A stretch of DNA of 64,000 nucleotides from an uncultured Gemmatimonadota bacterium (GTDB taxonomy: Bacteria; Gemmatimonadota; Gemmatimonadetes; Palauibacterales; Palauibacteraceae), in contig CAYXHP010000022.1 in the NCBI GenBank assembly GCA_964465015.1, positions 1,704 to 65,703 on the forward strand. Reading direction: 5' to 3'. The position numbers and the translations under genes were made by a program. Each line of letters opens with the position of its first letter. Within the stretch, counting starts at the first letter, position 1. The notes under the pieces are model-generated. The model had not been told where the DNA came from. It worked only from the letters and a program-made list of their open reading frames with translations, and did no database searches. Of this stretch, positions 3,491 through 49,734 are shown in pieces.

Positions 3491-4375
3491 GTGTCGAATC
3501 GGTGGATGTGGCTGGAGGGAGAGGGTGGGGAGGCCGCCGAGGCCCTGATGCAGCGACGCATCCGTACGTCCGGAAGGACCACGTCCGCGGACCGGCCCTG
3601 GCCGGTGACGGGTGAGCTGATGAACGAACCGTCGATCCCAGCGAGCCAGTCGGAGGTCGACCTGGCCGATGCCGCGGAGCCGCGATCGGTCCGTGAGCTC
3701 TTGCTCCGGGCCGTGAACCTCGTGGTCGCCCTGGTGGCGCTGATCGTCCTCGCACCCGTCATGCTCCTGATCGCGATCGCGATCAAGGTCGACAGCCGGG
3801 GGCCGATCTTCTATCGGCAGCTTCGGATCGGACTGGACCGACGACGCGCCCCGGACGCCGCCGAGGGCGAGAACAAGCGCACCGCGGATCTGGGCGGACG
3901 GCCGTTCGTGATCTACAAGTTCCGCACGATGCTCGTGGACGCCGAGGCCGATACGGGGCCCGTCTGGACCCGGGGCGCGGACGACCGCGTGACGCGCGTG
4001 GGCCGATTCCTCCGCCATCACCGCCTGGACGAGCTCCCGCAGCTGTGGAACGTCGTCACCGGCGACATGGCCGTGGTGGGACCGCGGCCCGAGCGGCCCG
4101 GCTTCGTGCACGACCTCACGCAAGAGATCGAAGGTTACCCGCTGCGGCAGCGTGTCCGCCCCGGGATCACCGGTCTGGCGCAGGTGAATCGCGAGGCCGA
4201 CCAGTCCATAGACGACGTGCGCCGAAAGCTCCAGTACGACCTGGACTACGTGCGCCGGAGATCGCTGCTCCTGGACCTGTCCGTCATGATCCGCACGCCG
4301 CTCGTGATGATCCGCCGGGACGTGGTCGCATCGGAGGATGGGACCGAGTCCGGCGAGCGACCGGAGTCCCGATGA
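3491..4375 (+). CDS. Sugar transferase (bacterial polyprenyl-phosphate glycosylphosphotransferase, WbaP/EpsB C-terminal type); the priming enzyme.
   Basis: One TM (LLLRAVNLVVALVALIVLAPVMLLIAIAI) followed by the conserved Bac_transf block (PIFYRQ ... DELPQLWNVVTGDMAVVGPRP). GTG 3491 is preceded by the RBS-like GGGAGAGAGGGA. Alternative start ATG 3620. Confidence 0.8.
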   Translation: MSNRWMWLEGEGGEAAEALMQRRIRTSGRTTSADRPWPVTGELMNEPSIPASQSEVDLADAAEPRSVRELLLRAVNLVVALVALIVLAPVMLLIAIAIKVDSRGPIFYRQLRIGLDRRRAPDAAEGENKRTADLGGRPFVIYKFRTMLVDAEADTGPVWTRGADDRVTRVGRFLRHHRLDELPQLWNVVTGDMAVVGPRPERPGFVHDLTQEIEGYPLRQRVRPGITGLAQVNREADQSIDDVRRKLQYDLDYVRRRSLLLDLSVMIRTPLVMIRRDVVASEDGTESGERPESR

Positions 4376-6695: not shown

Positions 6696-7505
6696 GTGGC
6701 CGCGGCCACGGTGAGCGCCTTCCTCCTCCTGTTCGGCCCCGGACTCGTGGAGCTGGTGGGTGACTGGCTCCGCGATACCGATTACCTGCACGGCTTCCTC
6801 CTCCTGGGCGTCGCGCTCTATCTGGCCTGGAGGGACCGCCGCCGCGCCGCGCCCTCCCCATCGCGCCGGGCGGGCGGTCTCGTCATCGGTGCCGCCGTGC
6901 TCCTCTTCCTCGTGGCCAGCGTCGCCTCGGAGCACTTCACGATGCGCCTGGCCGCGCTGGCGGCCGGTGCGGGCCTCGTCCTCTTCTACGTGGGCCCGGA
7001 GCAGCTTCGGGCGTGGTGGCTCCCCTTCGCACTCATGGTGTTCGCCATCCCGCTCCCGGAGGTCGTGGTGGGGACGGTGACGCTTCCTCTGCAGCTGTTC
7101 GCGTCGCGAAGCGCCGCGGCGCTGCTCCGGTTCCGGCATGTTCCGTCGACGGTCTCGGGCAACATCATCAATTTGCCGGGCCAGCGGCTGTTCGTGGCCC
7201 AGGCGTGCAGCGGCCTTCGGTCCCTGTCGGCCCTCTTCGGGCTCACGCTCCTCATGGGCGGCACCTGGCTCGACCGACCGGCCGACCGCATCGTGCTCCT
7301 GGTCGCCGCGCTCCCGGTGGCGTTGCTCGCGAACGTCTTCCGCATCTTCGTGACCGGCTTCCTGGCGTACTTCGTGGGCACGGGCGCGGTCACGGGCGAG
7401 GCACACGAGTCGGCGGGGCTCCTGGTGTTCGCGGCCGCCCTCGGCGTGCTCGGCCTGCTCGCCTGGATGTTGAAGAGCCGCGAGCGCTCGCGGGTGCGAG
7501 CGTGA
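6696..7505 (+). CDS. xrtA: Exosortase (XrtA/EpsH family transpeptidase).
   Basis: Polytopic membrane protein with the exosortase catalytic blocks: Cys in AQACSGLRS and the Asn-x-x-Arg in LANVFRIF. RBS GGAGGGAGG upstream of GTG 6696. It is followed by EpsI. Confidence 0.85.
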   Translation: MAAATVSAFLLLFGPGLVELVGDWLRDTDYLHGFLLLGVALYLAWRDRRRAAPSPSRRAGGLVIGAAVLLFLVASVASEHFTMRLAALAAGAGLVLFYVGPEQLRAWWLPFALMVFAIPLPEVVVGTVTLPLQLFASRSAAALLRFRHVPSTVSGNIINLPGQRLFVAQACSGLRSLSALFGLTLLMGGTWLDRPADRIVLLVAALPVALLANVFRIFVTGFLAYFVGTGAVTGEAHESAGLLVFAAALGVLGLLAWMLKSRERSRVRA

Positions 7506-8209
7506 GCGAGGTCGAGGGCGTGGGGGCGTCGCGGAGCGGCGCTGGCGGCGGTCGCCTGTGGGTGTCGCTCGTGCCCGCCGTGCTCCTGCTCCTCGGGGCG
7601 GGCGCCCGGACCGCGCTCCATCCCGGCCGCGAGCTGCCCCTCCAGGCCCCGCTCTCAGGCCTCGTGGGGTCCCTGGCGCGCTTCGGACCCTCGAGCGAGG
7701 TGCCTCTCGACCCGGCCAGCCGGAGCGTGCTGGCCGCCGACGACATCCTGTTCCGGAGGTATCGACCCTCGGGCGGAGGCGTCTTCGACGTCTTCGTGGC
7801 CTACTACGGTCGGCAGAAGGCGGGGAGCAGCATCCACTCCCCGCGGAACTGCCTCCCGGGGAGCGGCTGGGAGCCGCTGGAGCACCAGGAGGAGGCGGTG
7901 CATACGACCGTGGCGGATGGGCGGGTCAACCGCTACCTGGTCGAGGATGGCTCCGGCCGCCGCGCCCTCGTCTACTACTGGTACCAGGGGCGCGGGAGAA
8001 TCGTGGCGGACGAATACCGGGTGAAGTGGTACTTGCTTCGAGATGCCGTGCTCGAGCGACGCACGGACGAGGCCCTGATCCGGCTGGTGTTCGCGGTCGC
8101 ACCGGGCGAGACGGCCGACGTGGTGGCCGGGCGCACCCGTTCCTACGTGCAGCGGCTCGCCTCCGCCATGTGGGACTACCTTCCCCCCGCCAACGAGCCG
8201 GGGAGCTGA
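7502..8209 (+). CDS. epsI: EpsI family protein (exosortase-associated).
   Basis: GTG 7502 overlaps the exosortase stop (GTGA). N-terminal TM. Conserved block SIHSPRNCLPGSGW is typical of EpsI. The front half of long ORF 7013.. was rejected. Confidence 0.8.
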   Translation: MSEVEGVGASRSGAGGGRLWVSLVPAVLLLLGAGARTALHPGRELPLQAPLSGLVGSLARFGPSSEVPLDPASRSVLAADDILFRRYRPSGGGVFDVFVAYYGRQKAGSSIHSPRNCLPGSGWEPLEHQEEAVHTTVADGRVNRYLVEDGSGRRALVYYWYQGRGRIVADEYRVKWYLLRDAVLERRTDEALIRLVFAVAPGETADVVAGRTRSYVQRLASAMWDYLPPANEPGS

Positions 8210-10649: not shown

Positions 10650-11747
10650 ATGCCACGGACGGGGCGCGGACTCCGACCGTCCGTCTGCATGATCAACTTC
10701 AACGGCGCGGAATACCTGCGGGCATCGCTCGATGCACTGATGGGCATCGAGGCCTTCGTGGCCGAGATCCTCCTGGTCGACAACGCGTCGACCGATGGCA
10801 GTCGCGAGCTCGTGGAGACGCACTATCCGTCCGTGCGGGTCGTGGCGCTCGACGAGAACCGGGGAGCCGCCGCCGCTCGCAACGTCGCGCTGAGTGCTGC
10901 TCGAAGCGACGTGGTGTTGCTCCTGGATAACGATGTGACGCTGGCGGAGGCCGCGTTGGGCCGGCTGCTGGAGGCGCTGGGCGAGGACCCGTCCGTGGTG
11001 GCCGCGATGCCGGCCATCGTCTACGCCGGCGACCGTGAGACGGTTCAGTACGATGGAGCCGATGCCCACTTCCTGGGACAGCAGCTGCTCCACGACGAGG
11101 GCGTCCCCTACGAGACGCTGCCGATGGGCCAGCGCGACCTGGGCTCCGTCGTGAGCGCCTGCCTGGTGGTGCACCGCGGTCGCCTGCAGGAGAGAGCCGG
11201 CGGGGCGGAAGCCCTGGCGACCTTCGACGAAGACTTCTTCATCTACTTCGAGGATCACGATTTCGGCTATCGGATGAGAGCGCTCGGACTCCGGGTCGTG
11301 GCCGTGCCCCTGGCGCGCTGCTTCCACGAAGCGGGGACCCCCGGACTCTCCATCCGGGTCCTCGGATCGTACTCCGCTCTCCGGGTCTTCTGCCACATCA
11401 GGAACCGCTGGCTGTTCATCGCCAAGAACTATTCGCTTCGGACGCTGGCCGTGCTGGCGCCCATGCTGGTCGGCTACGAGGTCCTGCAGTTCGCCGCCTC
11501 GGCCAGGAAGGGGTGGCTCGCCCACTGGGCGCGCGCGGCAGGGTGGATGATTCGTCACCCGCGGCGGCTGGCCGCGAAGAGGAGACAGGTGCAACGGGCG
11601 CGCAGGGTGTCCGATGGTGAGCTGCTGAAGGGCGGCGCGGTACCGCTGAGGCGGGAGGCCATCGACACTCCGCTCGAGAGGGCCGCGAAGCGGCTCCTGG
11701 ATGTCGTGGCGGGGGGATACTGGCGACTGACGCGGGGGCTGCTCTGA
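10650..11747 (+). CDS. Family 2 glycosyltransferase.
   Basis: GT2 N-terminus PSVCMINFNGAEYL. DxD-like LLDNDV. ATG 10650 chosen because the upstream in-frame TTG 10560 region has low GC3 (non-coding character). Confidence 0.8.
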   Translation: MPRTGRGLRPSVCMINFNGAEYLRASLDALMGIEAFVAEILLVDNASTDGSRELVETHYPSVRVVALDENRGAAAARNVALSAARSDVVLLLDNDVTLAEAALGRLLEALGEDPSVVAAMPAIVYAGDRETVQYDGADAHFLGQQLLHDEGVPYETLPMGQRDLGSVVSACLVVHRGRLQERAGGAEALATFDEDFFIYFEDHDFGYRMRALGLRVVAVPLARCFHEAGTPGLSIRVLGSYSALRVFCHIRNRWLFIAKNYSLRTLAVLAPMLVGYEVLQFAASARKGWLAHWARAAGWMIRHPRRLAAKRRQVQRARRVSDGELLKGGAVPLRREAIDTPLERAAKRLLDVVAGGYWRLTRGLL

Positions 11748-11791: not shown

Positions 11792-13081
11792 GTGGCCGGT
11801 ACCGACCGTGCGGCGCCGACGGCCCGACGTCGTCTACGGATTGCGATCGTAGCCGCATGCCCCTTTCCGGAGCGGAGGGGAACTCCGGTCCGTATCGAGC
11901 GCATGGCCGAGTCCCTGTCGCGTCGGGGGCACGAGATCCACGTGGTCACGTACCCGTACGGCTCCGGAGAGGTGGCACCGGAGATCCTGGTCCACCGAGC
12001 GTCGCGGACCGGAACGCGATACAGGGCATTGCCGGGCCCTTCGCTGGACAAGCTCACGCTGCTCGACCCGCGGCTCGTGCGTGTCCTGCGGCGGCTTCTC
12101 CACAGCACGCCGATCGACGTCGTGTACGCGCACCACTACGAGGGGCTCCTGGTCGGGGCGGTCGCTCGAGCCGGGGTGGATGTGCCGCTCGTCTACGATG
12201 CGCACACGCTCTTGGCTTTCGAGCTGCCGGAGTACGGTCCGCGACTGCCGGTGCGGCTCAAGGGCGGGGTGGGTCGGGCGCTCGATCGTTGGCTACCGAC
12301 GCGGGCCGACCACGTCATCTCGGTCAGCTCGACGATCCGCGACTGGCTGCTCGAGTCGACGCGACTCGGTCCCGAAGACGTTACGGTCATCTCGAACGGG
12401 GTCTCCGCCGGGCTGTTCCCGGTCCCCGGACCGGACGATGTGCTGGGGGGCGGACGCATCGTGGTCTTCACGGGCAATCTCGCGGCCTACCAGGGCATCG
12501 AGCGTCTCCTGCGGGCCTTCCGGATCGTGGTCGACCAACGCCCCGACGCGCGGCTCCGGATCGTGACCGAGAGCTCCTTCACGGCCTACGAGGACCTCGC
12601 ACGGTCTCTCGGGATCCGCAGCTCGATCGACGTGGTCACGAGCGGCTTCGACGGAGTGCCGGCGCTGCTGGCGTCCGCCGACGTGGCCGTGAATCCGAGG
12701 CTCAACTGCACTGGAATCCCGCTGAAGCTCCTCAACTACATGGCGGCGTCGAAGCCCGTGGTCTCCTTCCGTAGCTCGGCCCCCGGTGTCGAACACGGTC
12801 GAACCGGCTGGCTGGCCGAGGACGGCGATGTCGAGGGGTTCGCCCACGGCATCCTGACGCTCCTGGGCGACCGAGCGAGGGCACGTTCGATGGGAGCGGC
12901 GGCTCGCTCGTTCGTCGAGGCCGAGCACACCTGGTCGAGGATGGCCGAGGCCGCGGAGGAGGTCTTCCTCTCGCTTCTCGATCCTTCGGTCGCCGACGTG
13001 CCCGCCGATGGTCTCTCGGCGTTGGAGATCGGCCGCTCGAGCGACGACATCTCCTCTCCCACCATGCGGAGCGGGACGTGA
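11792..13081 (+). CDS. Family 4 glycosyltransferase (GT-B, Glycos_transf_1).
   Basis: GTG 11792 with RBS GGGAGGGG about 18 nt upstream. N-terminal RIAIVAACPFPERRG and a C-terminal GT4 fold. Its stop overlaps the next GT4 start. Confidence 0.75.
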   Translation: MAGTDRAAPTARRRLRIAIVAACPFPERRGTPVRIERMAESLSRRGHEIHVVTYPYGSGEVAPEILVHRASRTGTRYRALPGPSLDKLTLLDPRLVRVLRRLLHSTPIDVVYAHHYEGLLVGAVARAGVDVPLVYDAHTLLAFELPEYGPRLPVRLKGGVGRALDRWLPTRADHVISVSSTIRDWLLESTRLGPEDVTVISNGVSAGLFPVPGPDDVLGGGRIVVFTGNLAAYQGIERLLRAFRIVVDQRPDARLRIVTESSFTAYEDLARSLGIRSSIDVVTSGFDGVPALLASADVAVNPRLNCTGIPLKLLNYMAASKPVVSFRSSAPGVEHGRTGWLAEDGDVEGFAHGILTLLGDRARARSMGAAARSFVEAEHTWSRMAEAAEEVFLSLLDPSVADVPADGLSALEIGRSSDDISSPTMRSGT

Positions 13082-14337
13082 AGGACCGGAGGCGTCCCTC
13101 GCTCCTGTACGTGGTGCCGGGCCACGTCTTCATGCCGTCGGCCGGACCCACGCGAAACGTGCTGAACCAGGCGCGGGCCATGGCCGCCTGGGCCGACGTG
13201 GCCGTCGCCTTCCGCAGCCTCACCGCGACTCCCGGGCCTACGGATCCGCGCATCGTGGCGATCGACCCTGGATCGGGGTCGACGGGAACGGACGACGCGG
13301 CGACCCGCGGCATGGGCTACCTGGAGTTCGCGGCCTATCTTCGACGCATCCGGCGATTCATGTTCGAGAGACTCGACACGCTGGATGTCGTTCTCGAGAA
13401 GGACTGGATGCTGACCGGCTACGTCGCACGATGGTGTCGGCGCAGGCGCGTGCCGTGCCTGCCGGTCAAGAACTGGGTCGCGGGCGGCGGCCCCTCTTCG
13501 CAGCAGGGTCTCGCCAAACGACTGCGGGCCGCCGTGGCATCGGAGCTCGAGGGCCGGCTCCTTCGGCGCGCCCCCGCGATCGTGGTCGAGACGGAGTTTC
13601 TCAAGTCGGCCGCGGTGTCGCGCTGGAACCTGGAGCCCGGGCGCATCGACGTGATAGGCCTGGGTGTCGACCGTGAGCTGTTCCGGCCGATGGACCGGAC
13701 TCGAGCGCGCGCCGACCTCGAGTTGCCCGCCAGCGGACGAATGCTCCTCTATGCCGGAATTCTCGATCGGACGCACGACCTGAGGCCACTCCTGGAGGCG
13801 CTCTGTCGGGTTCAGGACCGGGAGTTGTGCCTCCACGTGGTCGGAGATGGACCGTGTAGGCAGGAATACGAGGAGCTCGCCTCCGCGGCTCCCGGAGCGG
13901 TCCACTTCCACGGACGCGTCCCGCACGGGGACGTGCCCTTGTACGTGGCCGCATCGGATCTGTGCGTGGCGCCCTACGATACGCGAGCCTTCCCGGGAGG
14001 TGAGGTCGGCTATTCCACGCTGAAGGTCCGGGAGTACCTGAGCGCCGGGCGCCCCGTAGCGACGACGGGGAGCGGGTCCCTCCGCGACCTGGTGCGCGAG
14101 GACGTGACGGGCTTCCTCCTGGACAACGAGCCGGATCGCTGGTACGAGCTGCTCGCGTCGCGACGCACATGGGACCGACTGGCCTCCATGGCGGAGGCGG
14201 CGTCGGCGACCGATCTCCCGAGCTGGGACGATGTCGCACGCCGGTTCCAGCACGTGTGCATGCGGGAGATCTCGTCCTTCGGTGGCCGGTGTTCGTCTCC
14301 CGCCGAAGTGCTCCCCTGCGAGGCCCCGGGAGGCTGA
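13078..14337 (+). CDS. Family 4 glycosyltransferase.
   Basis: GTG 13078 overlaps the upstream stop (GTGA). The whole 419-aa ORF has high GC3. GT4-like C-terminal half (LLYAGILDRTHDLRPLLEAL ... GEVGYSTLKVREYLSAGRPVATT). Confidence 0.75.
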   Translation: MKDRRRPSLLYVVPGHVFMPSAGPTRNVLNQARAMAAWADVAVAFRSLTATPGPTDPRIVAIDPGSGSTGTDDAATRGMGYLEFAAYLRRIRRFMFERLDTLDVVLEKDWMLTGYVARWCRRRRVPCLPVKNWVAGGGPSSQQGLAKRLRAAVASELEGRLLRRAPAIVVETEFLKSAAVSRWNLEPGRIDVIGLGVDRELFRPMDRTRARADLELPASGRMLLYAGILDRTHDLRPLLEALCRVQDRELCLHVVGDGPCRQEYEELASAAPGAVHFHGRVPHGDVPLYVAASDLCVAPYDTRAFPGGEVGYSTLKVREYLSAGRPVATTGSGSLRDLVREDVTGFLLDNEPDRWYELLASRRTWDRLASMAEAASATDLPSWDDVARRFQHVCMREISSFGGRCSSPAEVLPCEAPGG

Positions 14338-14340
14338 TGG

Positions 14341-14799
14341 ATGTCGCTCTATGCCCTGGAAGTCTACGTCCACGTGGTGGCGGCCGTGGTGCTGGTCGGG
14401 TACTCCTCCTTCTGGCTGGTGATGTCCATGGCGCTGCGCCGGGAGGGCGGAGACCTGGACACCGAGGAGACGCTCGCGCTCATCGGCCGGTCGCGATGGC
14501 CGCCCTTCGTCGTCCCGGAGGGGTTGCGCGTTTCGATGGTGGTGCTCGGCTGGATCCTTATTCTGTTCATGGTCGCCAGCGGCGCGTTGCTCCTGCACGT
14601 TCGTGGAGTGGGACCGGCTCAACTGGGCTCCGGCGCCTTCTGGGCCGCCCGCTTCGGGCACGTCCTGGCCGTGAAGCTCGGGCTCCTGGGCCTGTTCGTG
14701 GTGGATCAGATCTGGCTCTCGGTTCGACCCTCTCCGCGGGGGACGCTTCTCGGAGCGGTGCTCGTCGCCCTGATCGCATGCGTATCCGTGCTCCTCTGA
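14341..14799 (+). CDS. Small integral membrane protein (~4 TM), paralog A; function unknown.
   Basis: ATG 14341 just after GGAGG. Hydrophobic profile. Paralogous to the next gene (HVLAVKLGLLGLFVVDQ versus HVLGVKLLLVLFMIGYQ). Confidence 0.65.
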   Translation: MSLYALEVYVHVVAAVVLVGYSSFWLVMSMALRREGGDLDTEETLALIGRSRWPPFVVPEGLRVSMVVLGWILILFMVASGALLLHVRGVGPAQLGSGAFWAARFGHVLAVKLGLLGLFVVDQIWLSVRPSPRGTLLGAVLVALIACVSVLL

Positions 14800-14810
14800 G
14801 AGTCTATAAC

Positions 14811-15236
14811 ATGACGATCTTTCGGCTCGTCCTCATGATTCACCTCCTGGCCGCCTTCATCTGGCTCGGCCACATGTTCTTCTGGTCGCTGTTCTCGGGC
14901 CCGGTGCTCAAGAAGATCGGACCTCCGCCCAAAGGCGAGCGGCTGCGGGAGTTGAGCCTGAGCATGGGAGGGCTGGGGTGGCCGGCTCTCGGTGTGCTCG
15001 TCGTCACCGGCAGCTATCTACTGTCCGTCCGCGGCATCCACCTCGCCGACCTGGTGAGGCCGGGCTTCTGGGCCCAACCCGGAACGCACGTGTTGGGCGT
15101 CAAGCTCCTGCTCGTGCTGTTCATGATCGGCTACCAGGCCGTGATCGGGCACCGCCGCGCTCCGCGGGCCATCTATCTGGACATGGGTGCGGCCCTCCTG
15201 GTGCTGGGCGCCTCCGTCCTGCTCGCGCGAGGTTGA
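14811..15236 (+). CDS. Small integral membrane protein (~4 TM), paralog B.
   Basis: ATG 14811. Internal start of ORF 14169..15236 chosen at the first TM. Tandem paralog of 14341..14799. Confidence 0.65.
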   Translation: MTIFRLVLMIHLLAAFIWLGHMFFWSLFSGPVLKKIGPPPKGERLRELSLSMGGLGWPALGVLVVTGSYLLSVRGIHLADLVRPGFWAQPGTHVLGVKLLLVLFMIGYQAVIGHRRAPRAIYLDMGAALLVLGASVLLARG

Positions 15237-15238
15237 GC

Positions 15239-16816
15239 GTGGTCGCCGCGGGTGCTCCCAGGGTCCTGGTGCTCGGACTCGATTTGGGCGATGGTCGCCT
15301 CCTGCGAGAGTGGGCCGCGCGCGGAGATCTTCCACATCTGGCGGGCTTGCTCGACGAGGGGTCGGCCGGGGAGCTCTCCACCACGGCAGAGCTGCTGCAT
15401 GTCTCGGCGTGGCCGACGCTGTATACGGGGGCGGATCCGGGGGTGCACGGCGTCTACTACACCTTCCAGGCCAGTCCCGGGCTGCAGGGCTACCGGCGAT
15501 TCGGGGCCGACCAGTACGGCGTTCCGACGGTGTGGAGTCTGCTGGGCCGGGGCGGAGTCCGGAGCACGGTCCTGGATGCTCCCTACACGCATCCCGAAGC
15601 GGCTCCGGGCGTCGCACAGATTCTCGACTGGGGGACCTGGGCACGTTACTGGAAGCCCGACTCGGTGCCGCCATCGATGCTTCGGAGGCTGCGTCGGAAG
15701 GTCGGGGACTACCCGCTGGGCCTGGAGGCACACGACCAGGGTCTCGCCGCCCTGGATCCCGATTTGCTCCAGCCACGGTTGCTCGAGAGCGTGGGTGCCA
15801 AGACGGACGCGATCCTGTGGCTCATGGACGCCGAGCCCTGGGACCTCTTCTTCACGGTCTACGGGGAGACGCACCTGGGCGGGCACTACCTGTGGCGACC
15901 GGCCCAGGACCGCGAGAAGGACGATCGTGATCTGCGGCTCCTCGGAGAGCTCTATCGGGCGCTGGACACGGGGATCGGCAGGATTCTCGCGGCCCTCCCC
16001 GAGGAGACGACGGTCTTCCTGGTCAGCGGTGACGCCGTCGCGCCCAACCACTCCGGCTGGCACCTGCTGCCGGACGTGCTGCGGCGTCTCGGCCACCTCG
16101 CGGAGCCCCAGGAGGGCTCGGCATCGGACGAGGACGCCGCTCCGCAGGAGGAAAAGGCCGGCCGCACGAGCCTGGATCCCGTGCGCATGCTTCGGGACCT
16201 CCTGCCGAAGGACTTTCGAAAGTCGCTGGCACGCCGTCTGCCCACCCGGCTCCGGGACACGCTCGCGCGTCGCGTCGACACGGCGAACATTGACTGGAGC
16301 CGGACGAGGGCCTTCACGCTTCCCACGGACCTCGAGGGCTGCATCCGGGTGAATCTGCGGGGGCGGGAGCCTCAGGGAGTGGTGGAGCCCGGCGAATACG
16401 ATGCCCTGTGCGACGAGATCACGGAGGAGCTCCGGGAGCTGGTGAATCCCGCGACCGGGCGGCCTGCGGTCGCCGACGTGGTGCGGTCGCGAGACCGGCT
16501 GGAGGGCCCCCGGTGCGACCGGCTACCGGACCTGGTGGTCCTGTGGTCGATGGAAGCCCCGATCGAGAGCCTGCGCTCTCCCCGCATCGGTGTCGTGTCC
16601 GCTCCGTCCCCCGACGCGAGGCCGGGAACGCACGCACCGCCCGGCTTCCTCCTCGTCCGGGGCCCCGGAGTGCCGCGAGGCGGCCTTCCAGAGGGGGCCC
16701 ACGTGCGGGATCTTGCACCCACGCTCCTGTCCCTGTACGGGGTGGAGAGGCCGGACTACATGAGAGGCTCGAGCCTTCTGGATCGCGCCCTCACGCGAGC
16801 GACAGAGGAGAGGTGA
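15239..16816 (+). CDS. Alkaline-phosphatase-superfamily protein (type I phosphodiesterase / nucleotide pyrophosphatase-like), paralog 1.
   Basis: GTG 15239 three nt after the upstream stop. N-terminal PRVLVLGLDLGDG ... HVSAWPTLYTGADPGVHG and HLGGHY are AlkP-core-like metal-site blocks. About 35% identical to 17892..19502. Confidence 0.7.
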   Translation: MVAAGAPRVLVLGLDLGDGRLLREWAARGDLPHLAGLLDEGSAGELSTTAELLHVSAWPTLYTGADPGVHGVYYTFQASPGLQGYRRFGADQYGVPTVWSLLGRGGVRSTVLDAPYTHPEAAPGVAQILDWGTWARYWKPDSVPPSMLRRLRRKVGDYPLGLEAHDQGLAALDPDLLQPRLLESVGAKTDAILWLMDAEPWDLFFTVYGETHLGGHYLWRPAQDREKDDRDLRLLGELYRALDTGIGRILAALPEETTVFLVSGDAVAPNHSGWHLLPDVLRRLGHLAEPQEGSASDEDAAPQEEKAGRTSLDPVRMLRDLLPKDFRKSLARRLPTRLRDTLARRVDTANIDWSRTRAFTLPTDLEGCIRVNLRGREPQGVVEPGEYDALCDEITEELRELVNPATGRPAVADVVRSRDRLEGPRCDRLPDLVVLWSMEAPIESLRSPRIGVVSAPSPDARPGTHAPPGFLLVRGPGVPRGGLPEGAHVRDLAPTLLSLYGVERPDYMRGSSLLDRALTRATEER

Positions 16817-16817
16817 C

Positions 16818-17888
16818 GTGGCCGTTCGAATCCTGCAGGTAGGTGCCGGAATCCGCGGAAAGCACTGGGCGGGCTTCGTCGACGACCACCCGGACTTCAC
16901 GTGCGTGGGCTTCGTGGACCCGGACGCGGCGGCCCTGGAGGCTTTGCGGGAGCGGTTCCCCGCCGAGGGGAAGGTCTTCCTGCGGGACCTCGATGAGGCG
17001 CTGGCTTCCACGGAGGCGGATGCCGCGCTCATCGTATCGCCGTCGGCCCTCCACGCGGACCACAGCTGCCAGGCCCTGGAGGCCGGACTCACGGTGATGG
17101 TGGAGAAGCCGCTGGCGACCTCGATCGAGGAGGCCGAGCGCGTGCTGGCCACGGCGCGCGGCACCGGCCGCACGGTCATGGTGGCCGAGAACTACCGCTA
17201 TTGGCCCTCCGAGCGCACCGTGCGCCAGCTGGTGGCCGAGGGCAGAATCGGCCGGATCGACTCCGCGACCCTCGTCGACCGCCGACACATGCCCAGCCAC
17301 ACGGAAGGCCCCTGGCTGGCCAGGATCGAGTATCCGCAGCTCCAGGAGATCGCGGTCCACCACTTCGACAGCCTGCGCGCGTTCTTCTCACGGGCGCCGT
17401 CCAGCCTGTCGGCGCATGTGTGGAATCCGGCGTGGAGCGATTACTCGCATGGGGCCGTGAGTCAGGTGCACCTGGATCTGGAGGGTGTGCGGGTCGAGTA
17501 CCTGGGCACGCTCAGCTCGCACCGGTTCAGCTTCGACCTCCGGGTGGAGGGCGAGGGAGGATCGATCTGGACGAACCGCAAGTACGTGGCGTGGCGTCCG
17601 GCCGGGAGTCGGTTCTTCCGGCCCGTCCGCCGGGTGGACGTGCCGCCCGGCGACGAGGCGTCCTACCCGAAGGGAGGGACCACCTCGCTCCTCAACGCGC
17701 TACGGGACGCGGTGGTGGACGGGACGGAGCCCGAGACGAGCGGTAGCGACAACATCTGGAACGTGGCCATGATCGAAGCGGCCAAGCGCTCGGACCGTGA
17801 GGGTCGCACGGTGTCCATCGAAGAAGTGTGGCCCGGGGCGCCCTCGCACGTCGAGGCCGGGCGGACGCCCGCCACGCCCGGGAGCTGA
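16818..17888 (+). CDS. Gfo/Idh/MocA family NAD(P)-dependent oxidoreductase.
   Basis: Rossmann N-terminus MAVRILQVGAGIRG ... EKPLA consensus. RBS GAGGAGAGG precedes GTG 16818. Confidence 0.8.
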   Translation: MAVRILQVGAGIRGKHWAGFVDDHPDFTCVGFVDPDAAALEALRERFPAEGKVFLRDLDEALASTEADAALIVSPSALHADHSCQALEAGLTVMVEKPLATSIEEAERVLATARGTGRTVMVAENYRYWPSERTVRQLVAEGRIGRIDSATLVDRRHMPSHTEGPWLARIEYPQLQEIAVHHFDSLRAFFSRAPSSLSAHVWNPAWSDYSHGAVSQVHLDLEGVRVEYLGTLSSHRFSFDLRVEGEGGSIWTNRKYVAWRPAGSRFFRPVRRVDVPPGDEASYPKGGTTSLLNALRDAVVDGTEPETSGSDNIWNVAMIEAAKRSDREGRTVSIEEVWPGAPSHVEAGRTPATPGS

Positions 17889-17891
17889 GCT

Positions 17892-19502
17892 GTGCCACGT
17901 GTCCTCCTCCTCGGCCTCGATTCGGCCGATGCAGAGCTCGTCGAGCGCTGGTGCGACGCGGGGGATCTTCCGCATCTGTCCGCCCTGCGTCGTGACGGCG
18001 TGTGGGGCCGACTGGGTACGACCGCCGACACCATGCACGTGTCCGCCTGGCCGACCCTCTACACCGGAGCCTCGCCGGGTCAGCACGGCATGTACCACGC
18101 CTACCAGGTCGAGTCCCACGTGCAGGGGGTCCACCGGACGCGCCCCGAGGAGTGTGCCCTCCCGCCATTCTGGAAGTTCCTCGATGACGCGGGTCGGCGG
18201 TGCGTCGTCTTCGACGCCTTCATGGACTACCGCCTGCCGGACTTCGGCGGACGCCAGATCCTGGAGTATGGCACCTGGACCTGGTTCGGAAAACCGTCGT
18301 CCACACCGCGGCGCTTGCGCAAGGAGCTCATCCGGAGCGTCGGTCCCTACCCTGCCCCCGAGCACCTGCACGTCCTGAGCGTTCCGGATCCCCGCGCTTT
18401 CCGAGACCAGCTCGTGGCAGGTGCGGAAGCCAAGGCCAGGGCGACGCGGTGGCTGCTCGGTCGGTCGGACTGGGACATGGCGTTCGTGACCTTCGGTGAG
18501 CCGCACGGCGGGGGACACTACCTATGGCACACGGGTGATTCGGACCACCCGGCCTCGCACGACTACGACATCTCCCCGGCGCCCGAGGCCCTGAGGGACG
18601 TCTACCGGGCGGTGGACGCGGCCATCGGGTCCATCCTGGAGTCCGTGGACGATTCCGTGACGGTCGCCGTGTTCTCGGGTGACGGCATGGGTCCCAATTA
18701 CTCGGCCTGTCATCTCATGCCGGAGTTTCTGCGGCGGAAGGGCTGGCTGGTGGACTCGGGGGGCTCGAACCCGGACGGGGAGCCCTCCGTGGCGGCGAAG
18801 AAGGGCCTCCTGTCCCGCGTGCGGGAGATGATTCCCATGGAGTTCCGGCAGATGGTTTCTCGCTGCATTCCGCGGAGTCTCCACTACAGCATGAGCATGA
18901 AGTGGGTGAACGATGGCATCGACTGGGATCGTTCACGGGTCTTCTGTATCCCGAACGCCAACGAAGGCTACTTTCGACTCAATCTCCGCGCTCGCGAGCC
19001 ACGGGGTATCGTCGAGCAAGGGGCCGAGATGGCCGGGATTCTCGAGGAGCTGTCGGATGAGCTGGGGTCCCTGGTGAATCCGGACAGGGGAGCACGCGCG
19101 GTGGACGCCGTGGTGCGGGCGGACGATCGCTTCCCGGGCAGGGCGCGAGACCGCCTGCCGGACGTGATCGCCTGCTGGGATCCGAGCGCTCGCATTCTGG
19201 ACCGGATCGAGGCCGCGCATTGGGGTCTGGTCGAGGGCCAGGCCGGGTACAGGACCGCCCCCTATTACACGGGCAACCACCGGCCCAATGCCTTCGTCAT
19301 CGCCCGAGGTCCCGGTATCACGCCGGGCGCGCGGCTCCGGGGCCACCACATCCGGGACCTGGCACCGACGATCCTGGCCCTGCTCGGTGTGGATCCACCC
19401 GCGCACTTCGAAGGTCGTGCGGTCGCGGAGATTTGTGGAACGGGCAGCCCCGAAGTCGGTGCCCTGAGCCCGAACGCGAGCGGTCATCCATGTGCGGAGT
19501 AG
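17892..19502 (+). CDS. Alkaline-phosphatase-superfamily protein (type I phosphodiesterase-like), paralog 2.
   Basis: GTG 17892. MPRVLLLGLDSADAE ... HVSAWPTLYTGASPGQHG ... HGGGHY. Paralog of 15239..16816. Confidence 0.7.
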   Translation: MPRVLLLGLDSADAELVERWCDAGDLPHLSALRRDGVWGRLGTTADTMHVSAWPTLYTGASPGQHGMYHAYQVESHVQGVHRTRPEECALPPFWKFLDDAGRRCVVFDAFMDYRLPDFGGRQILEYGTWTWFGKPSSTPRRLRKELIRSVGPYPAPEHLHVLSVPDPRAFRDQLVAGAEAKARATRWLLGRSDWDMAFVTFGEPHGGGHYLWHTGDSDHPASHDYDISPAPEALRDVYRAVDAAIGSILESVDDSVTVAVFSGDGMGPNYSACHLMPEFLRRKGWLVDSGGSNPDGEPSVAAKKGLLSRVREMIPMEFRQMVSRCIPRSLHYSMSMKWVNDGIDWDRSRVFCIPNANEGYFRLNLRAREPRGIVEQGAEMAGILEELSDELGSLVNPDRGARAVDAVVRADDRFPGRARDRLPDVIACWDPSARILDRIEAAHWGLVEGQAGYRTAPYYTGNHRPNAFVIARGPGITPGARLRGHHIRDLAPTILALLGVDPPAHFEGRAVAEICGTGSPEVGALSPNASGHPCAE

Positions 19503-21421
19503 CCGGACTCGCCTGCCTCCGCTCGGACTGCTCCCGGGCCCACGAAGTGGTCGTGGGCGCCCTGTGTGACCGGCAGGCGCATCGAGGGCCCGACGACCAG
19601 GGCGTCGTCGTTCTCGACGACGTGTGCCTGGGATCCCGACGCCTGAGCATCCTCGACGTCTCGGCGGCCGGCCACATGCCGATGTCGGACCCGACCGGCC
19701 GCTGGTGGGTGGTCCACAACGGGGAGATCTACAACTTCCGGGATATCCGGCGCGAGTTGGAAGGCGAGGGCCACGTCTTCGTTTCCGAATCGGATACGGA
19801 GGTGATCCTCCACGCCTTCATGGAATGGGGCACGGACGCCTTCCAGCGCTTCGTCGGGATGTTCGCCACCGCCCTGTACGACCGGAACACCCGGTCCCTG
19901 ACGCTGGTCCGGGACCGATACGGCATCAAGCCGCTCTACTACGTCGAGGTCGGCGGTCATCTCCTGTTCTCGTCGGAGCTGAAGGCCCTGCTGGACCGAA
20001 GTGCCCCGGCGAGGGTGGATCGCCAGAAGCTCACCGAGTGGCTCCTGTACCGGAACGTGGATGCGCTCACGCCCGAGACGCTCGTGGAGGGCGTTCGCTC
20101 CGTCATGCCCGGACAGATCCTCCAGGTCCGGGGCGGGGAGATCATCGAGAGCACCTTCTACCAGCCACTCTCGTTCGTGGACGAGACCGTCTATCGCGAG
20201 CAGAGGACGGCGGGCTCCGCCGAGCTGGTGGAGCGGGTCGAAGGGACCCTCCGGGAAGCGGTCCGCTCACGACTCGTGAGCGATGTCCCGGTGGGCACGC
20301 TGTGCAGTGGCGGCCTCGACTCGAGCCTGGTCACGGCGCTGGCCGCCGAGTTCACGACGCAGATCACGGCGTTCCACGTCTCCGTCGCCGAGGCCCCCAA
20401 CCTCGATGAGCGGAGGTTCGCCGAGCGGCTCACCCGGAATCTGGGCATCGAGCTGGTCTCCCACGACCTCACCGCCGCCTCCTTCCGGGCCACGCTGCCC
20501 CGGGCGGTCTACCATTCGGACCTGCCGCTGACACACCCCAACTCGGTCGCCTATCTACAGATCAGTGAGGTGGCGAGAGCCCACGGAGTGATCGTCCTGC
20601 AGTCCGGGGAAGGGGCCGACGAGCTGTTCGGGGGCTACAGCTGGAGCTACCGCAGGCTCCGGACGCTGCAACGGCTGCGAGGATTGCTGCGCCTGGTGCC
20701 GGGTTCCATGGTGGACCGATTCATCCTGTTGGCCTACTCCATGGCCGGACTCCCGGCCACCACGCACAAGTTCCGTGAGGTCCTGCCTGCGACGGTGGCG
20801 GCGATCGACCGGTTCGCCCGGGAGGACTGGGCGGCCCGGTGCGAGGAAGCCTACGGGTTCGTGGACGACGCCATGGATCGTCGCCTGCTGGGACGGATGC
20901 TCGCCGACCTGAGCGACTTCCTGGCTCCCCTCCTCCGTCGCCTGGACCGGATGACGATGGCGGCCTCGGTGGAGTCCCGCGTGCCCTTCCTGGATCACCG
21001 GCTGGTGCACCAGGCGATCAACCTCCCGCTGTCCTACCGGATCGGGGCCCGGGCCGACAAGTGGCTCCTGAAGAGGGTGGCGGACACGCACCTCCCGCGC
21101 AGCAACGTGTGGCGGAAGAAGATGGGATTCCCGCTCCCGCTCGGCGACTTCATCGGTCCACTCGCCATCCTGGAGGCTTTCACGGATGGGTTCTGCGAGC
21201 GCATCCTCGGCTACGCGCGCAGCGCCCTCGAGGACCGGGTGACGCGTTGGGCAGAAGATCCCTTCGCCTTCTTCGGACTGCTGACCCTGGAGATGTGGGG
21301 CCGGATGTTCGTGATGGGCGAGGAGCTCGGAGAGGTGGAGTTCCGCTTCGGTGTCGAGGCCGGGGCCGGCGACCGAGTCGAGGTCGCGGATACCCGTAGT
21401 CGCGCGGTCGGCACGGGATGA
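19490..21421 (+). CDS. Asparagine synthase (glutamine-hydrolysing) family amidotransferase, of the type associated with exosortase systems.
   Basis: Starts MCGVAG with the catalytic Cys2. Class-II glutamine amidotransferase domain. Synthetase-domain SGGLDSS PP-loop. Overlaps the upstream gene by 13 nt. Confidence 0.85.
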   Translation: MCGVAGLACLRSDCSRAHEVVVGALCDRQAHRGPDDQGVVVLDDVCLGSRRLSILDVSAAGHMPMSDPTGRWWVVHNGEIYNFRDIRRELEGEGHVFVSESDTEVILHAFMEWGTDAFQRFVGMFATALYDRNTRSLTLVRDRYGIKPLYYVEVGGHLLFSSELKALLDRSAPARVDRQKLTEWLLYRNVDALTPETLVEGVRSVMPGQILQVRGGEIIESTFYQPLSFVDETVYREQRTAGSAELVERVEGTLREAVRSRLVSDVPVGTLCSGGLDSSLVTALAAEFTTQITAFHVSVAEAPNLDERRFAERLTRNLGIELVSHDLTAASFRATLPRAVYHSDLPLTHPNSVAYLQISEVARAHGVIVLQSGEGADELFGGYSWSYRRLRTLQRLRGLLRLVPGSMVDRFILLAYSMAGLPATTHKFREVLPATVAAIDRFAREDWAARCEEAYGFVDDAMDRRLLGRMLADLSDFLAPLLRRLDRMTMAASVESRVPFLDHRLVHQAINLPLSYRIGARADKWLLKRVADTHLPRSNVWRKKMGFPLPLGDFIGPLAILEAFTDGFCERILGYARSALEDRVTRWAEDPFAFFGLLTLEMWGRMFVMGEELGEVEFRFGVEAGAGDRVEVADTRSRAVGTG

Positions 21422-24005: not shown

Positions 24006-24665
24006 ATGGATAGACGGTTGCGGACGCTCCTCCTCCTGGCGGCATCCGAGAAGTCCTATCTCTCGCGTATGGTGAGGCGCCTCAAACCTCGCGTCATCCC
24101 GGACGCGGACAAGCGACCGGAAGCCCAGGGTGATGGTCGCTATGCCGACCTCGAGAGCGGAGAAGAGGCTCGCTACGCCTTCGTCGCGGGGTACCTGAGC
24201 CAGGTGGGCGGCGATGGTTCTCCCTCGGTGCTCGACGTGGGTTGCGGTCCCGGTATCCTGCAGCCGTACCTGTCGCGGCACGGGTATGCACGCTACCTCG
24301 GGATAGACTTCGCTCCCAACAACATCGCCGTGGCCAGCCGCCGAGCCGACGAGAACACGAGCTTCGAACTGGCCCGGGCCACGGAGTATGAGCCGCTCGA
24401 CACCTTCGATCTCATCGTTTTCAACGAGATGCTGTACTTCCTCGACGATCCCGTCGGCTGCATTCGATCGTACATGCGGCATCTCGAGCCGGGAGGCCTG
24501 GTCGTCACCTCCAATACGATCGATTTCGCGACGCTGGGTCTCGTTCGCGCGCTTCGCACGAGTCTTCCCATCCTGGACGAGACCCTGGTCGTCAACGCGG
24601 CTGGATTCGGCTGGGTGATCCAGGCTGTCGGCGAGCGAAAGGGATCAGTCCTGGAGAGTCGCTGA
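24006..24665 (+). CDS. Class I SAM-dependent methyltransferase.
   Basis: Motif I VLDVGCGPG. Start taken at ATG 24006 (MDRRLRT). Upstream GTG 23952 lies in an AT-richer promoter-like stretch. The 3' end overlaps the convergent flippase gene by 21 nt. Confidence 0.7.
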   Translation: MDRRLRTLLLLAASEKSYLSRMVRRLKPRVIPDADKRPEAQGDGRYADLESGEEARYAFVAGYLSQVGGDGSPSVLDVGCGPGILQPYLSRHGYARYLGIDFAPNNIAVASRRADENTSFELARATEYEPLDTFDLIVFNEMLYFLDDPVGCIRSYMRHLEPGGLVVTSNTIDFATLGLVRALRTSLPILDETLVVNAAGFGWVIQAVGERKGSVLESR

Positions 24666-26243
24666 GCCGCCGGATACGGAGGCAGCCTCCTGCACCGCCC
24701 GGGCGCTCGGAATCACGAGGTCTTGAGCGTCGATTTCGCCCAGCAACCACAGCACTCCGAGATAGGCTGCGGCCAGCCCTGTGAGCTTCACGAGGACGAG
24801 CAGTCCCGACGTGTGCACGAAGATCGCCGGAACGGCCACCACGAGTGATGCGATCGCGACCCTGATCGATGTGCCGAGGGGAACGGGTGGCCCGAACTCG
24901 CGCCACGTCAGCACCGTGATTGTGACTCCGACGCCGAACATTCCGAGCATCAGCGAGAGAGCTGCGCCCATCGGGCCCATCGACGGAATCAGAAGGTAGT
25001 TCGCCAGGCCTACCACCGGCATGAAGGCGAGGAGGACGCCGGCCGTCGCACGCTGCCGGCCGGCAGCCATGAGACCGTAGGCCAGTGAGTCCAGGAGCGC
25101 GAACCATGCATAGGCGATCAGTTGCACGGTCAGGAAGATCCCTCCACTCGCGTAGTCGCTCGAGTAGACGAGGCTCATGAGGGAGGATGCGCTTCCCCCC
25201 AGGATGACCACCGCGGGAGCGCCCAGGATCAGGGAGAAGCGGCCCGCCTCGCGCACGTGCTCGTGTGCCCCTCTGCGGTTTCCCTCGGAGAGAGCCCAGG
25301 CGACAGAGGACAGCACGACGCCTGACTGGACGATGGGGATCACCGTCAGCATCTGGGAGATCTTGAGGGCTGCGACGTAGCGGCCGATGACGGCTGCGTC
25401 CCCGTGCCAGAGACTGCCCAGCGACCAGAGGTCGAGGCTCGTGAGGACGTTCAGACACACCACGAACATGCTGATCTGGCCTCCCAGGGAGACCACCTCG
25501 CGCATCAAGGACCACACCGGTCGAAAACCCTCCGGTGGGTATCGCACGACGAGGTAGAGGAGCGCGGCACAGGATGCCAGCACGTTGACCACGAGCGCGC
25601 GCCCGACCGACATCCCGAGGTAGACCAGCGCGATGGCTCCGAGGCACTTCGTCGCTCCCAGCAGCACCTGACTCGCCGCCAGGGGTCCGAATCGTCGACG
25701 TCCGTTGAGCGCCCCGGTGTATCCGGCGCAGGCAGCCGAGAAGGGAACATCCAGGAGGGCCAGGCGAAACAGGCGAGCGCCATCCGCGATGCCGAAGAGA
25801 TGGCCGAGCCGAGGCGCCAGGTACCACCCGATCGCAAAGACCAGGAGCGACGTCACGAGCAGCACGGCGCGCGCCGATTGCTCCACCTCCCTCGTCTGGG
25901 ACTGGTGATCGGGGATCAGCTTCCCCAGGGCTCCGGGTACGCCGATGAAGCTCAACATCTCCAGCCAGACGAGCACGGACAGCAGGAGGCCGTACACTCC
26001 GAAGGCCGCGGGCGCGAGGGTGCGGGCCAGTATCACGGAGCCCACATAGCTGAGCACCAGGAAGATGGCCCGCCCGACCAGCAGCTGTCGGGTTCCGCGC
26101 TTCTGGGTCAGCTGCGCCTCGTCTGGTGTGGACGAGCCGTCCGCCGCCCCGGTCATGCCGGGACTTTCGTCGGCCACGAGGTCTTTCACCTTCAGCTCCT
26201 GTTCATTCCGGACCGCATCGGCATGAACGCACCCGGCGCGCAT
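24645..26243 (-). CDS. Polysaccharide biosynthesis flippase (Wzx-like, MOP/oligosaccharidyl-lipid flippase family).
   Basis: About 12-14 TM helices. Conserved flippase-like layout. Start could be the internal ATG at 26156 (MTGAADG ...); the first 29 codons have somewhat lower GC3. Confidence 0.75.
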   Translation of the reverse strand: MRAGCVHADAVRNEQELKVKDLVADESPGMTGAADGSSTPDEAQLTQKRGTRQLLVGRAIFLVLSYVGSVILARTLAPAAFGVYGLLLSVLVWLEMLSFIGVPGALGKLIPDHQSQTREVEQSARAVLLVTSLLVFAIGWYLAPRLGHLFGIADGARLFRLALLDVPFSAACAGYTGALNGRRRFGPLAASQVLLGATKCLGAIALVYLGMSVGRALVVNVLASCAALLYLVVRYPPEGFRPVWSLMREVVSLGGQISMFVVCLNVLTSLDLWSLGSLWHGDAAVIGRYVAALKISQMLTVIPIVQSGVVLSSVAWALSEGNRRGAHEHVREAGRFSLILGAPAVVILGGSASSLMSLVYSSDYASGGIFLTVQLIAYAWFALLDSLAYGLMAAGRQRATAGVLLAFMPVVGLANYLLIPSMGPMGAALSLMLGMFGVGVTITVLTWREFGPPVPLGTSIRVAIASLVVAVPAIFVHTSGLLVLVKLTGLAAAYLGVLWLLGEIDAQDLVIPSARAVQEAASVSGGSATLQD

Positions 26244-42809: not shown

Positions 42810-42861
42810 CGCCGCAGATGCGTCCGCCGGCCGCCCCCCCTCCGGTCCCGACCCGCCGCTG

Positions 42862-46731: not shown

Positions 46732-46789
46732 AGGGGGCGCCGGCGGCGCCCTCGCGACACGAATGCCACCCGCCGCGCAGGGAGGCGAC

Positions 46790-49731: not shown

Positions 49732-49734
49732 GTC

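Follow-up and report, generated by a model that had tools for sequence, protein, structure and literature searches.

The stretch of DNA analysed here, a window of 64,000 nucleotides (nt) from contig CAYXHP010000022.1 of an uncultured Gemmatimonadota bacterium, is a large exosortase exopolysaccharide (EPS) locus, as determined by Pfam annotation of its open reading frames (ORFs). This locus contains a cassette of five consecutive genes, which encode two small proteins with four transmembrane (TM) helices (TM-A and TM-B), two proteins of the alkaline phosphatase superfamily (AlkP1 and AlkP2) and, between the latter, an oxidoreductase of the Gfo/Idh/MocA family (Gfo). The five genes had been recognised in an initial annotation of this DNA, and their coordinates match it exactly:

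14341-14799, + strand: TM-A, 152 aa, four hydrophobic helices, paralog of TM-B
14811-15236, + strand: TM-B, 141 aa, four TM helices, CopD/HemJ-like group
15239-16816, + strand: AlkP1, 525 aa, GTG start, PF01663 at 2.4e-17
16818-17888, + strand: Gfo, 356 aa, GTG start, Gfo/Idh/MocA, PF01408 and PF22725
17892-19502, + strand: AlkP2, 536 aa, GTG start, PF01663 at 9.4e-26

Independent gene calls on public contigs with identical DNA yield the same lengths (152, 141, 525 and 356 aa), and the GC content of the window is high (~68%). The genes are tightly packed: TM-A begins 3 nt after the upstream glycosyltransferase gene GT4b, spacers of 11, 2, 1 and 3 nt follow within the cassette, and the end of AlkP2 overlaps the start of an amidotransferase gene, AsnB (19490-21421), by 13 nt. 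The gaps of 3-4 nt first reported were hence roughly right. From 10.5 to 22.6 kb of the window, every gene is on the + strand and is separated from the next by a short or negative spacer; no terminator-like sites were found on the + strand between 8 and 27 kb. Both duplications inferred initially are evident in pairwise comparisons, with TM-A and TM-B sharing 31% identity (E 6e-11) and AlkP1 and AlkP2 38% identity over their full length (E 3e-116).

A scan of 185,579 species genomes with the TM-B motif WLGHMF(F/V)W returned 44 loci, in the Gemmatimonadota, Alphaproteobacteria (Geminicoccaceae), Gammaproteobacteria (Steroidobacteraceae), Thermodesulfobacteriota and unclassified bacteria, revealing that the block recurs in 44 species-level genomes. 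The recurring order is TM-A–TM-B–AlkP1–Gfo–AlkP2–AsnB, usually between GT2-GT4-GT4 glycosyltransferase genes and a Wzx flippase gene. AlkP1 directly follows TM-B in all 44 loci, Gfo and AlkP2 then follow in the same order in 41-43, and an AsnB homolog (50-67% identical) comes after AlkP2, usually directly, in most of the 44 (with the AsnB ORF extracted in 35). Median spacers across genomes are 7.5, -1, 10.5 and 4.5 nt, the second of these (42 loci) separating TM-B from AlkP1. Carriers of the cassette, which comprise at least 44 species from at least three named phyla, are soil and sediment bacteria, almost all uncultured; the cultured ones include Marinimicrococcus flavescens YIM 152171 (L041) and Geminicoccaceae strain 1502E (L040). 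The closest relatives of AlkP2, at no more than 70% identity, belong to Gemmatimonadaceae metagenome-assembled genomes, and the cassette appears to have spread horizontally.

The constant partners of the block are GT2a, GT4a, GT4b, AsnB and Wzx, which are arranged in the window as follows:

10689-11747, + strand: GT2a, soluble family-2 glycosyltransferase, PF00535 at 4.5e-24; start uncertain, possibly up to 10512
11792-13081, + strand: GT4a, Pfam GT4 domains, 4-nt overlap with GT4b
13078-14337, + strand: GT4b, Pfam GT4, directly upstream of the cassette and its tightest partner
19490-21421, + strand: AsnB, glutamine-dependent amidotransferase with N-terminal Cys2, TIGR01536 at 425.7 bits (cut-off 267)
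24645-26189, - strand: Wzx-type flippase (Polysacc_synt), PF13440 and PF01943

Across the 44 genome loci, GT4b accompanies the cassette in 42, GT4a in 37, GT2a in 35 and Wzx, which in many other genomes lies directly after AsnB, in 24. In the reverse direction, we scanned metagenomes with a GT4b alignment, counting contigs with at least 1.5 kb of room downstream, and found cassette genes downstream of GT4b orthologs (38-52% identity) in ~37 of 41 such contigs. The arrangement of the five genes is far beyond chance, since its order recurs across the loci defined by the TM-B motif and follows GT4b in metagenomes. The conserved order and the short or negative spacers, together with several gene fusions, also bear out the single coupled unit of the initial annotation; its restriction to five genes did not hold, as the unit reaches further genes. 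The fusions join TM-A to TM-B in one 300-aa protein (loci L001, L046 and L047), Gfo to AlkP2 in proteins of 901 and 890 aa (P0096 and P0242) and AlkP to AlkP in a 1104-aa tandem (P0251), the last from a distant subfamily with canonical T/S and SDHG motifs.

The same components were also observed in other arrangements. Some metagenome contigs present the reshuffled order GT4b-(Gfo)-AlkP1-single TM-Gfo-AlkP2-AsnB. In a second architecture (L115, L116, L125, L126 and L132), a single, more divergent TM protein with 27-30% identity to TM-B separates AlkP1 from Gfo, and a second Gfo is often present; one locus (L121) reads Gfo-AlkP-AlkP-TM-TM-AlkP, that is, three AlkP and two TM genes. That the parts stay together despite changes in order is stronger evidence of functional coupling than the shared ancestry of a single arrangement would be.

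The block is not characteristic of exosortase loci: none of the 44 other genomes has an EpsH or EpsI homolog closer to the cassette than 10 kb, and we consequently rejected an exosortase-specific accessory module. A PIG-L deacetylase partner, following an MshA/MshB-like logic, was likewise rejected, as this gene lies near the cassette in only one of the 44 loci. A GMC flavoprotein oxidoreductase is encoded nearby in 17 of the 44, outside the constant core. TM-A, TM-B, AlkP1 and AlkP2 are not covered by any NCBIfam model, and no published description of the cassette was found in the literature on AlkP, COG3379, MocA-AsnB, EPS and CopD-HemJ contexts, in agreement with the earlier view that the combination is not a recognised one. 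We class the cassette as a module of polysaccharide operons that draws on known superfamilies and has an accessory or precursor-forming role.

AlkP1 and AlkP2 score 64 and 91.6 bits, respectively, against Pfam PF01663 (cut-off 23), and neither has a match to the sulfatase family PF00884 at E <=0.01 or a TM segment. A sulfatase or phosphoglycerol-transferase identity, the outcome that would have told against the initial assignment, was rejected on these grounds. Sequence searches against solved structures returned nothing useful, with best E values of ~0.08 for a single sequence and 0.0026 for a profile, and only a marginal match to choline-sulfatase (E 0.088). For the AlphaFold2 (AF2) model of AlkP2 (predicted local distance difference test, pLDDT, 87.5), the top 50 Foldseek matches in the PDB are all nucleotide pyrophosphatases/phosphodiesterases (NPP/ENPP, including ENPP1/3/5/7), phosphonoacetate hydrolase or PafA. 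The best of these is the Xanthomonas (Xac) NPP (E 1.8e-15), with TM-scores of at most 0.64 on the target and identities of 12-17%. Consistent with the initial annotation, no signal peptide or hydrophobic segment was detected in either protein, and both are predicted to be cytoplasmic because signal peptide and TM helix are lacking.

To map the active site, we used a profile alignment of AlkP to the Xanthomonas NPP. The first metal-ligand Asp of NPP, D54, aligns with D10, and the nucleophile Thr90 aligns with an invariant histidine, His49 (TFPNHYTLVTG versus HVSAWPTLYTG, with equal spacing to TG); a helix of the AF2 model starts at residue 49, supporting this mapping, and canonical relatives (P0251) carry T or S in the same column. 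The Thr/Ser nucleophile that characterises the NPP branch is thus missing from the cassette AlkPs. The NPP motif 'SDHGM' aligns with 'SGDGM', such that D257 is replaced by G263 and H258 by D264, while E203/H205/H209 and H463 plausibly correspond to NPP D210/H214 and H363. H49, E203, H205, H209, D264, N269, H463 and D489 are kept in both paralogs (44 AlkP1 and 41 AlkP2 orthologs); position 10 is E in 30 of the 44 AlkP1 orthologs, and five of them have Ala in place of Ser51. An amphipathic, Arg-rich helical insertion, in which R311, P315, R319, R324 and P327 are invariant, is a further feature of both paralogs, whose sequences are otherwise acidic; R362 and R368 are invariant as well. AlkP1 and AlkP2 form separate orthologous groups, with identities of 41-97% within and at most 43% between groups; these values indicate an old duplication, of which both copies have been kept everywhere.

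The wider AlkP-like family comprises 19,288 clusters (50% identity, E <=1e-3), in which D10, W53, H65, H205, H209, R362, R368, H463 and D489 are near-universal. The nucleophile column, by contrast, is variable (S in 30, V in 21, H in 18, N in 17, A in 16 and P in 12), and just seven of 139 representatives combine the canonical S/T49, D263 and H264; this seems to be a large branch of the AlkP superfamily without the usual nucleophile. H49 co-varies with D264, being present in 10 of 13 proteins with D264 and 3 of 85 with H264, and a third AlkP paralog in L047 pairs Ser49 with His264. On our reading, the cassette clade would have shifted the His ligand of its second metal site to the nucleophile position, leaving an apparently intact metal site but no longer the usual alkoxide nucleophile. 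AlkP1 and AlkP2 should be called NPP-fold proteins rather than NPPs, because they have the fold and the Pfam domain and lack the nucleophile.

Relatives of AlkP2 are named in their sources only as 'alkaline phosphatase family protein' or 'predicted AlkP superfamily phosphohydrolase/phosphomutase'. Further domain fusions in the AlkP-like family join a glycosyltransferase-like N-terminal domain to AlkP in P0306 (830 aa) and a partly duplicated AlkP in P0290 (717 aa). Plasmids of haloarchaea and cyanobacteria encode relatives of only 22-27% identity, annotated as 'alkaline phosphatase family proteins' and all uncharacterised, in glycan or natural-product contexts of other kinds. Of the 54 plasmid records with distant AlkP-like genes, 52 are haloarchaeal, with one to four such genes per haloarchaeal plasmid. 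On the Planktothrix agardhii plasmid p1 (L053, NZ_LR882945.1), a distant AlkP-like gene (26% identity) follows a dioxygenase gene and precedes those for a NadB-like flavoprotein, AsnB and an aminotransferase, in that order; the association of AlkP, oxidoreductase and AsnB therefore recurs with a different type of oxidoreductase. Each of the four haloarchaeal regions inspected (L052, L054, L055 and L056) contains a distant AlkP-like gene, with a 336-aa 'GNAT family' gene directly after it in L052 and L054 and ~1.6 kb upstream in L056, a flippase gene directly after it in L055 and a polysaccharide deacetylase gene upstream in L054.

The Gfo protein matches PF01408 at 4.2e-24 and PF22725 at 9.3e-8, and its 42 orthologs conserve the GxGxxG (G9/G11/G14), E96-K97-P98 and H181-H182-x-D184 motifs as well as 11 invariant arginines. 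These residues make an active enzyme probable and an anionic substrate plausible. Among solved structures, Gfo is closest to 1,5-anhydro-D-fructose reductase and inositol 2-dehydrogenase (E 2e-19 to 5e-18). Neither Gfo nor AsnB has a detectable hydrophobic segment or signal peptide.

TM-B is the most conserved component of the cassette, the matches listed being 49-77% identical to the TM-B of the window. Besides the WLGHMF(F/V)W motif, which includes an intramembrane H21-M22 pair, TM-B has invariant H11, W25, K98 and Q109, near-invariant H21 and H114 and a strongly conserved first loop. TM-A shares H11, W25 and the TM3 Lys with TM-B and lacks H21 and H114; its orthologs conserve H11, G20, W25, RWP, P59, R63 and K112, with a cytoplasmic loop motif of their own, R52-W53-P54...P59...R63. 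Counts of K and R under the positive-inside rule predict that loops 1 and 3, both K/R-rich and strongly conserved, are cytoplasmic and that both termini are periplasmic, a topology in agreement with the natural fusion of TM-A to TM-B.

Among 41 members of the TM family, 34 match Pfam CopD (best 1.5e-8), 17 UPF0093/HemJ (best 1e-4), seven DUF4149 and two DUF2269. The window TM-B itself scores 19 bits against the CopD/HemJ models (PF05425/PF03653; cut-off 32.1) and the window TM-A has no match. These two proteins resemble CopD and HemJ only as members of the wider group. The AF2 model of TM-B (pLDDT 84) has four helices, and a fold search against the PDB gave nothing significant (E >=1), with cytochrome bd, cytochrome b561 and NOX5, all heme-binding helix bundles, as the top matches. 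The TM-B family is small, amounting to 207 clusters by profile search, in which we found no domain fusions and no names more informative than 'uncharacterized membrane protein' or 'copper resistance protein D'. A flippase of the ArnE/F or GtrA type was rejected for the TM pair, which matches neither family; moreover, GT2a is soluble and not GtrB-like.

Elsewhere in the window, the exosortase genes and the remaining components of an EPS operon were annotated as follows:

3548-4375: Bac_transf priming transferase (Pfam)
6696-7505: EpsH, exosortase, 7 kb upstream of the cassette
7502-8209: EpsI, exosortase-locus gene upstream of the cassette
58670-59986: Wzy_C, Wzy-like protein (Pfam)

The locus also holds a histidine kinase, a sigma-54 regulator, Poly_export and AlgX-like proteins, GT4c, a PIG-L deacetylase, a GMC oxidoreductase, a GH1 hydrolase and deacetylases. 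With a priming Bac_transf, GT2 and GT4 genes, Polysacc_synt and Wzy_C, the window has the makeup of a Wzx/Wzy-type operon, and the ordinary Bac_transf gene makes it unnecessary to invoke the AlkP and TM pairs as a substitute priming phosphoglycosyltransferase. No PEP-CTERM-associated NCBIfam model scored above cut-off for the proteins scanned. A gene for a NodU/CmcH-type carbamoyltransferase (34359-36308, + strand) is followed by one for a small SxtJ-like protein (36281-36685, + strand); this pair also adjoins the cassette in the distant genomes L046, L047 and L001, in the last two beside a third AlkP paralog. A second sugar-modification block on the + strand (41976-50358) encodes FemAB/Acetyltransf_6-like proteins, a DegT aminotransferase, an ATP-grasp protein, a GT4, a second, divergent AsnB-like protein (46811-48634), a deacetylase and a hexapeptide acyltransferase. 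The ORF at 56142-57980 (- strand) opens with the tail of a Gfo/Idh/MocA Rossmann domain, which shares 34% identity with the Gfo of the cassette, and continues into an NAD-dependent epimerase/dehydratase domain; its start is probably mis-set, the alternative being a fusion. At the edge of the locus, two cyclic di-GMP (c-di-GMP-I) riboswitch aptamers (RF01051) on the + strand, at 50519-50609 and 51728-51816 (67.6 and 78.2 bits; gathering threshold 35), each lie upstream of a gene for a Big_2 Ig-like protein (50924-51445 and 52550-54016), which suggests c-di-GMP control of surface or matrix proteins.

Together, these observations lead us to favour, tentatively, a model in which the cassette encodes a membrane-tethered cytoplasmic complex that would make or remodel a phosphate-bearing sugar, used by the co-inherited glycosyltransferases ahead of amidation by AsnB and flipping by Wzx. 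TM-A and TM-B would form a pseudo-symmetric heterodimer of eight helices, termini in the periplasm, whose conserved cytoplasmic loops would dock an AlkP1/AlkP2 heterodimer and the NAD-dependent Gfo. The substrate of the docked assembly would be an anionic sugar that carries phosphate, be it a nucleotide sugar or one linked to undecaprenyl diphosphate, with Gfo oxidising or reducing a ring position and the AlkP pair, as a putative two-metal-site enzyme devoid of the usual Thr/Ser nucleophile, cleaving or transferring at the phosphate or diphosphate. The product would then pass to GT4b, GT4a and GT2a, after which AsnB would amidate it and Wzx would flip it. Gene structure, paralogy and fusions, the conservation of genes and residues, folds and predicted topology are observed or computed; the complex itself, its class of substrate and all chemical steps we infer, with the TM-A~TM-B, Gfo~AlkP2 and AlkP~AlkP fusions arguing for a physical complex. 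Synthesis of a precursor or acceptor is preferred over a dispensable decoration because the cassette is tied to GT4b.

Several findings weigh against this model. The canonical AlkP nucleophile is missing and its position is highly variable in the wider family, so the AlkPs may not perform classical phosphoryl transfer. The invariant intramembrane residues of TM-B (H11, H21, K98 and Q109) would not be explained by a passive anchor, and point to a cofactor (heme or metal) or a catalytic role. The specificity of Gfo is not readable from homology, since it scores far below every NCBIfam equivalog cut-off, reaching 94.3 bits against 355 for iolG, the best, and 71.2 against 450 for UDP-GlcNAcDh_Arch. 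Strict adjacency is not obligatory either: in L029 (/L003, SCUD01000046.1), AlkP2 (P0117) lies ~13 kb away from TM-A, TM-B, AlkP1, Gfo and AsnB, which stay together, and L024 has no Gfo nearby.

The role suggested in the initial annotation was the addition or removal of phospho-ester substituents on the polymer. In the form considered here, the AlkP pair would add or remove, for example, a phospho-alcohol or sugar-phosphate, on either the polymer or its lipid-linked repeat unit, while Gfo would prepare the alcohol or sugar and the TM pair would bind the lipid substrate. We consider this unlikely. The NPP fold and PF01663 membership of the AlkPs, their basic amphipathic insertion and the constant adjacency of two duplicated pairs would all suit such a decoration, and membrane-anchored AlkP-superfamily transferases with lipid donors are well established (EptA, LtaS and BcsG). 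These known lipid-dependent enzymes, however, are periplasmic and use a Thr/Ser nucleophile, whereas AlkP1 and AlkP2 are predicted to be cytoplasmic and carry His. Moreover, the cassette is co-inherited with glycosyltransferases instead of behaving as an optional add-on, which fits precursor or acceptor synthesis better. A simple phospho-ester reaction of the NPP type is in any case weakened by the changes from Thr/Ser to His and from 'DH' to 'GD'. We regard as doubtful to a similar degree the broader proposition that the cassette specifies a new membrane-bound machine for glycan precursors, in which a His/Asp-swapped AlkP heterodimer with non-classical chemistry would be combined with a cofactor-binding HemJ/CopD-like heterodimer and NAD-dependent sugar oxidation.

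The membrane pair is also open to a redox interpretation, whereby TM-A and TM-B would constitute a small b-type cytochrome akin to HemJ. The two TM1 histidines that are conserved would hold heme between them, and the cytochrome would connect a sugar oxidation at the membrane with the quinone pool or the respiratory chain. HemJ itself is reported to be a membrane-bound dimer with b-type heme (PMC13564367). The family matches to UPF0093/HemJ (17 of 41) and CopD (34 of 41), the H11 and TM3 Lys conserved in both TM-A and TM-B, the heme-binding bundles heading the fold search and the GMC flavoprotein near 17 of the 44 loci are all compatible with this interpretation. Set against them are the non-significance of those fold matches (E >=1), the sub-threshold Pfam score of the window TM-B and the position of the GMC gene outside the constant core; furthermore, Gfo/Idh/MocA enzymes pass hydride to NAD(P), with no known direct route to heme, and the AlkP pair would be left without a role. 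We accordingly judge a cytochrome improbable.

It is just as improbable, in our estimation, that the AlkP paralogs are non-catalytic and serve in substrate binding, scaffolding or regulation, with the chemistry left to Gfo and AsnB. Loss of the canonical nucleophile, and the scarcity of the S/T49, D263 and H264 combination in the wider family (7 of 139), would be expected under this explanation, but in all phyla sampled AlkP1 and AlkP2 alike retain a complete complement of potential metal ligands, together with many invariant polar residues, and the co-variation of H49 with D264 (10 of 13 versus 3 of 85) resembles a compensated ligand swap under selection for an intact site. Least probable is the import or insertion of copper or another metal by the TM pair for the His-rich AlkP sites (H49, H205, H209 and H463): CopD is the best Pfam match of the TM family, some sources name its members 'copper resistance protein D' and TM-B has the invariant H21-M22 pair within the membrane, but the CopD assignments are annotation only, no CopC-like partner is present, and H205, H209 and H463 are kept in thousands of AlkP-like clusters, most of which presumably have no TM partner, given that the TM-B family numbers only 207.

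Being tied to a particular set of glycosyltransferases, the cassette probably specifies a shared feature of environmental exopolysaccharides. Three of its five proteins belong to families without an assigned function (the TM pair and the AlkP-like family of ~19,000 clusters). Solving its function would provide a chemistry for a large orphan AlkP branch that seems to have given up its nucleophile, a role for a CopD/HemJ-like membrane protein outside copper or heme metabolism and a better annotation of EPS loci in metagenomes. Were the cassette to encode a new machine as outlined above, it would supply the first function for the ~19,000-cluster 'COG3379-like' AlkP family, whose members occur in bacterial, cyanobacterial and haloarchaeal glycan loci; an ordinary sugar-phosphate phosphatase with a dehydrogenase would represent a modest gain.

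Comparison with known systems reveals partial likenesses for each component. Like the heterodimeric small flippases ArnE/ArnF, TM-A and TM-B are paralogs of ~110-150 aa with four TM helices, encoded side by side in an operon for glycan modification, but they have no Pfam EamA or SMR match and match CopD and HemJ instead. EptA/MCR-1, LtaS, BcsG and OpgB similarly bring together an AlkP-fold domain and a multi-helix membrane part in the modification of envelope glycans. Each of them is a sulfatase-type enzyme (PF00884) in one polypeptide, whose catalytic domain is periplasmic and whose nucleophile is Thr/Ser, whereas in the cassette the membrane part is a separate CopD-like protein and the AlkPs are PF01663 members, predicted to be cytoplasmic, without Thr/Ser at the nucleophile position.

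With CopD, HemJ (UPF0093, PgdH2), DUF4149 and DUF2269, the TM pair has in common four TM helices, the TM1 His and the TM3 Lys. HemJ forms a dimer where the cassette has two paralogs, sometimes fused. The TM family is a small and distinct one, marked by the WLGHMF(F/V)W motif and by an AlkP1 gene that always adjoins, and it is not linked to genes for copper or tetrapyrroles. Gfo shares its domains, the GxGxxG motif, the EKP Lys and H-x-x-D with inositol 2-dehydrogenase, 1,5-anhydro-D-fructose reductase and WbpB/WlbA-type UDP-GlcNAc(A) 3-dehydrogenases, yet it constitutes an orthologous group of its own that is tied to AlkP2, covalent fusions included. Lastly, the AlkPs have the core fold of the NPP branch (Xanthomonas NPP, PDB 2GSN and 7MW8; ENPP1/3; phosphonoacetate hydrolase), along with the first metal-ligand Asp (D54, corresponding to D10), the TG and HG motifs and the C-terminal His (H463). 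They differ from NPP in being only 12-17% identical, in having 'H-x3-H', preceded by an invariant Glu, in place of 'D-x3-H', and in being ~140 residues longer, with the Arg-rich helical insertion and a β-rich insert, and they stand apart as a predicted cytoplasmic, obligate pair of paralogs with a TM partner.

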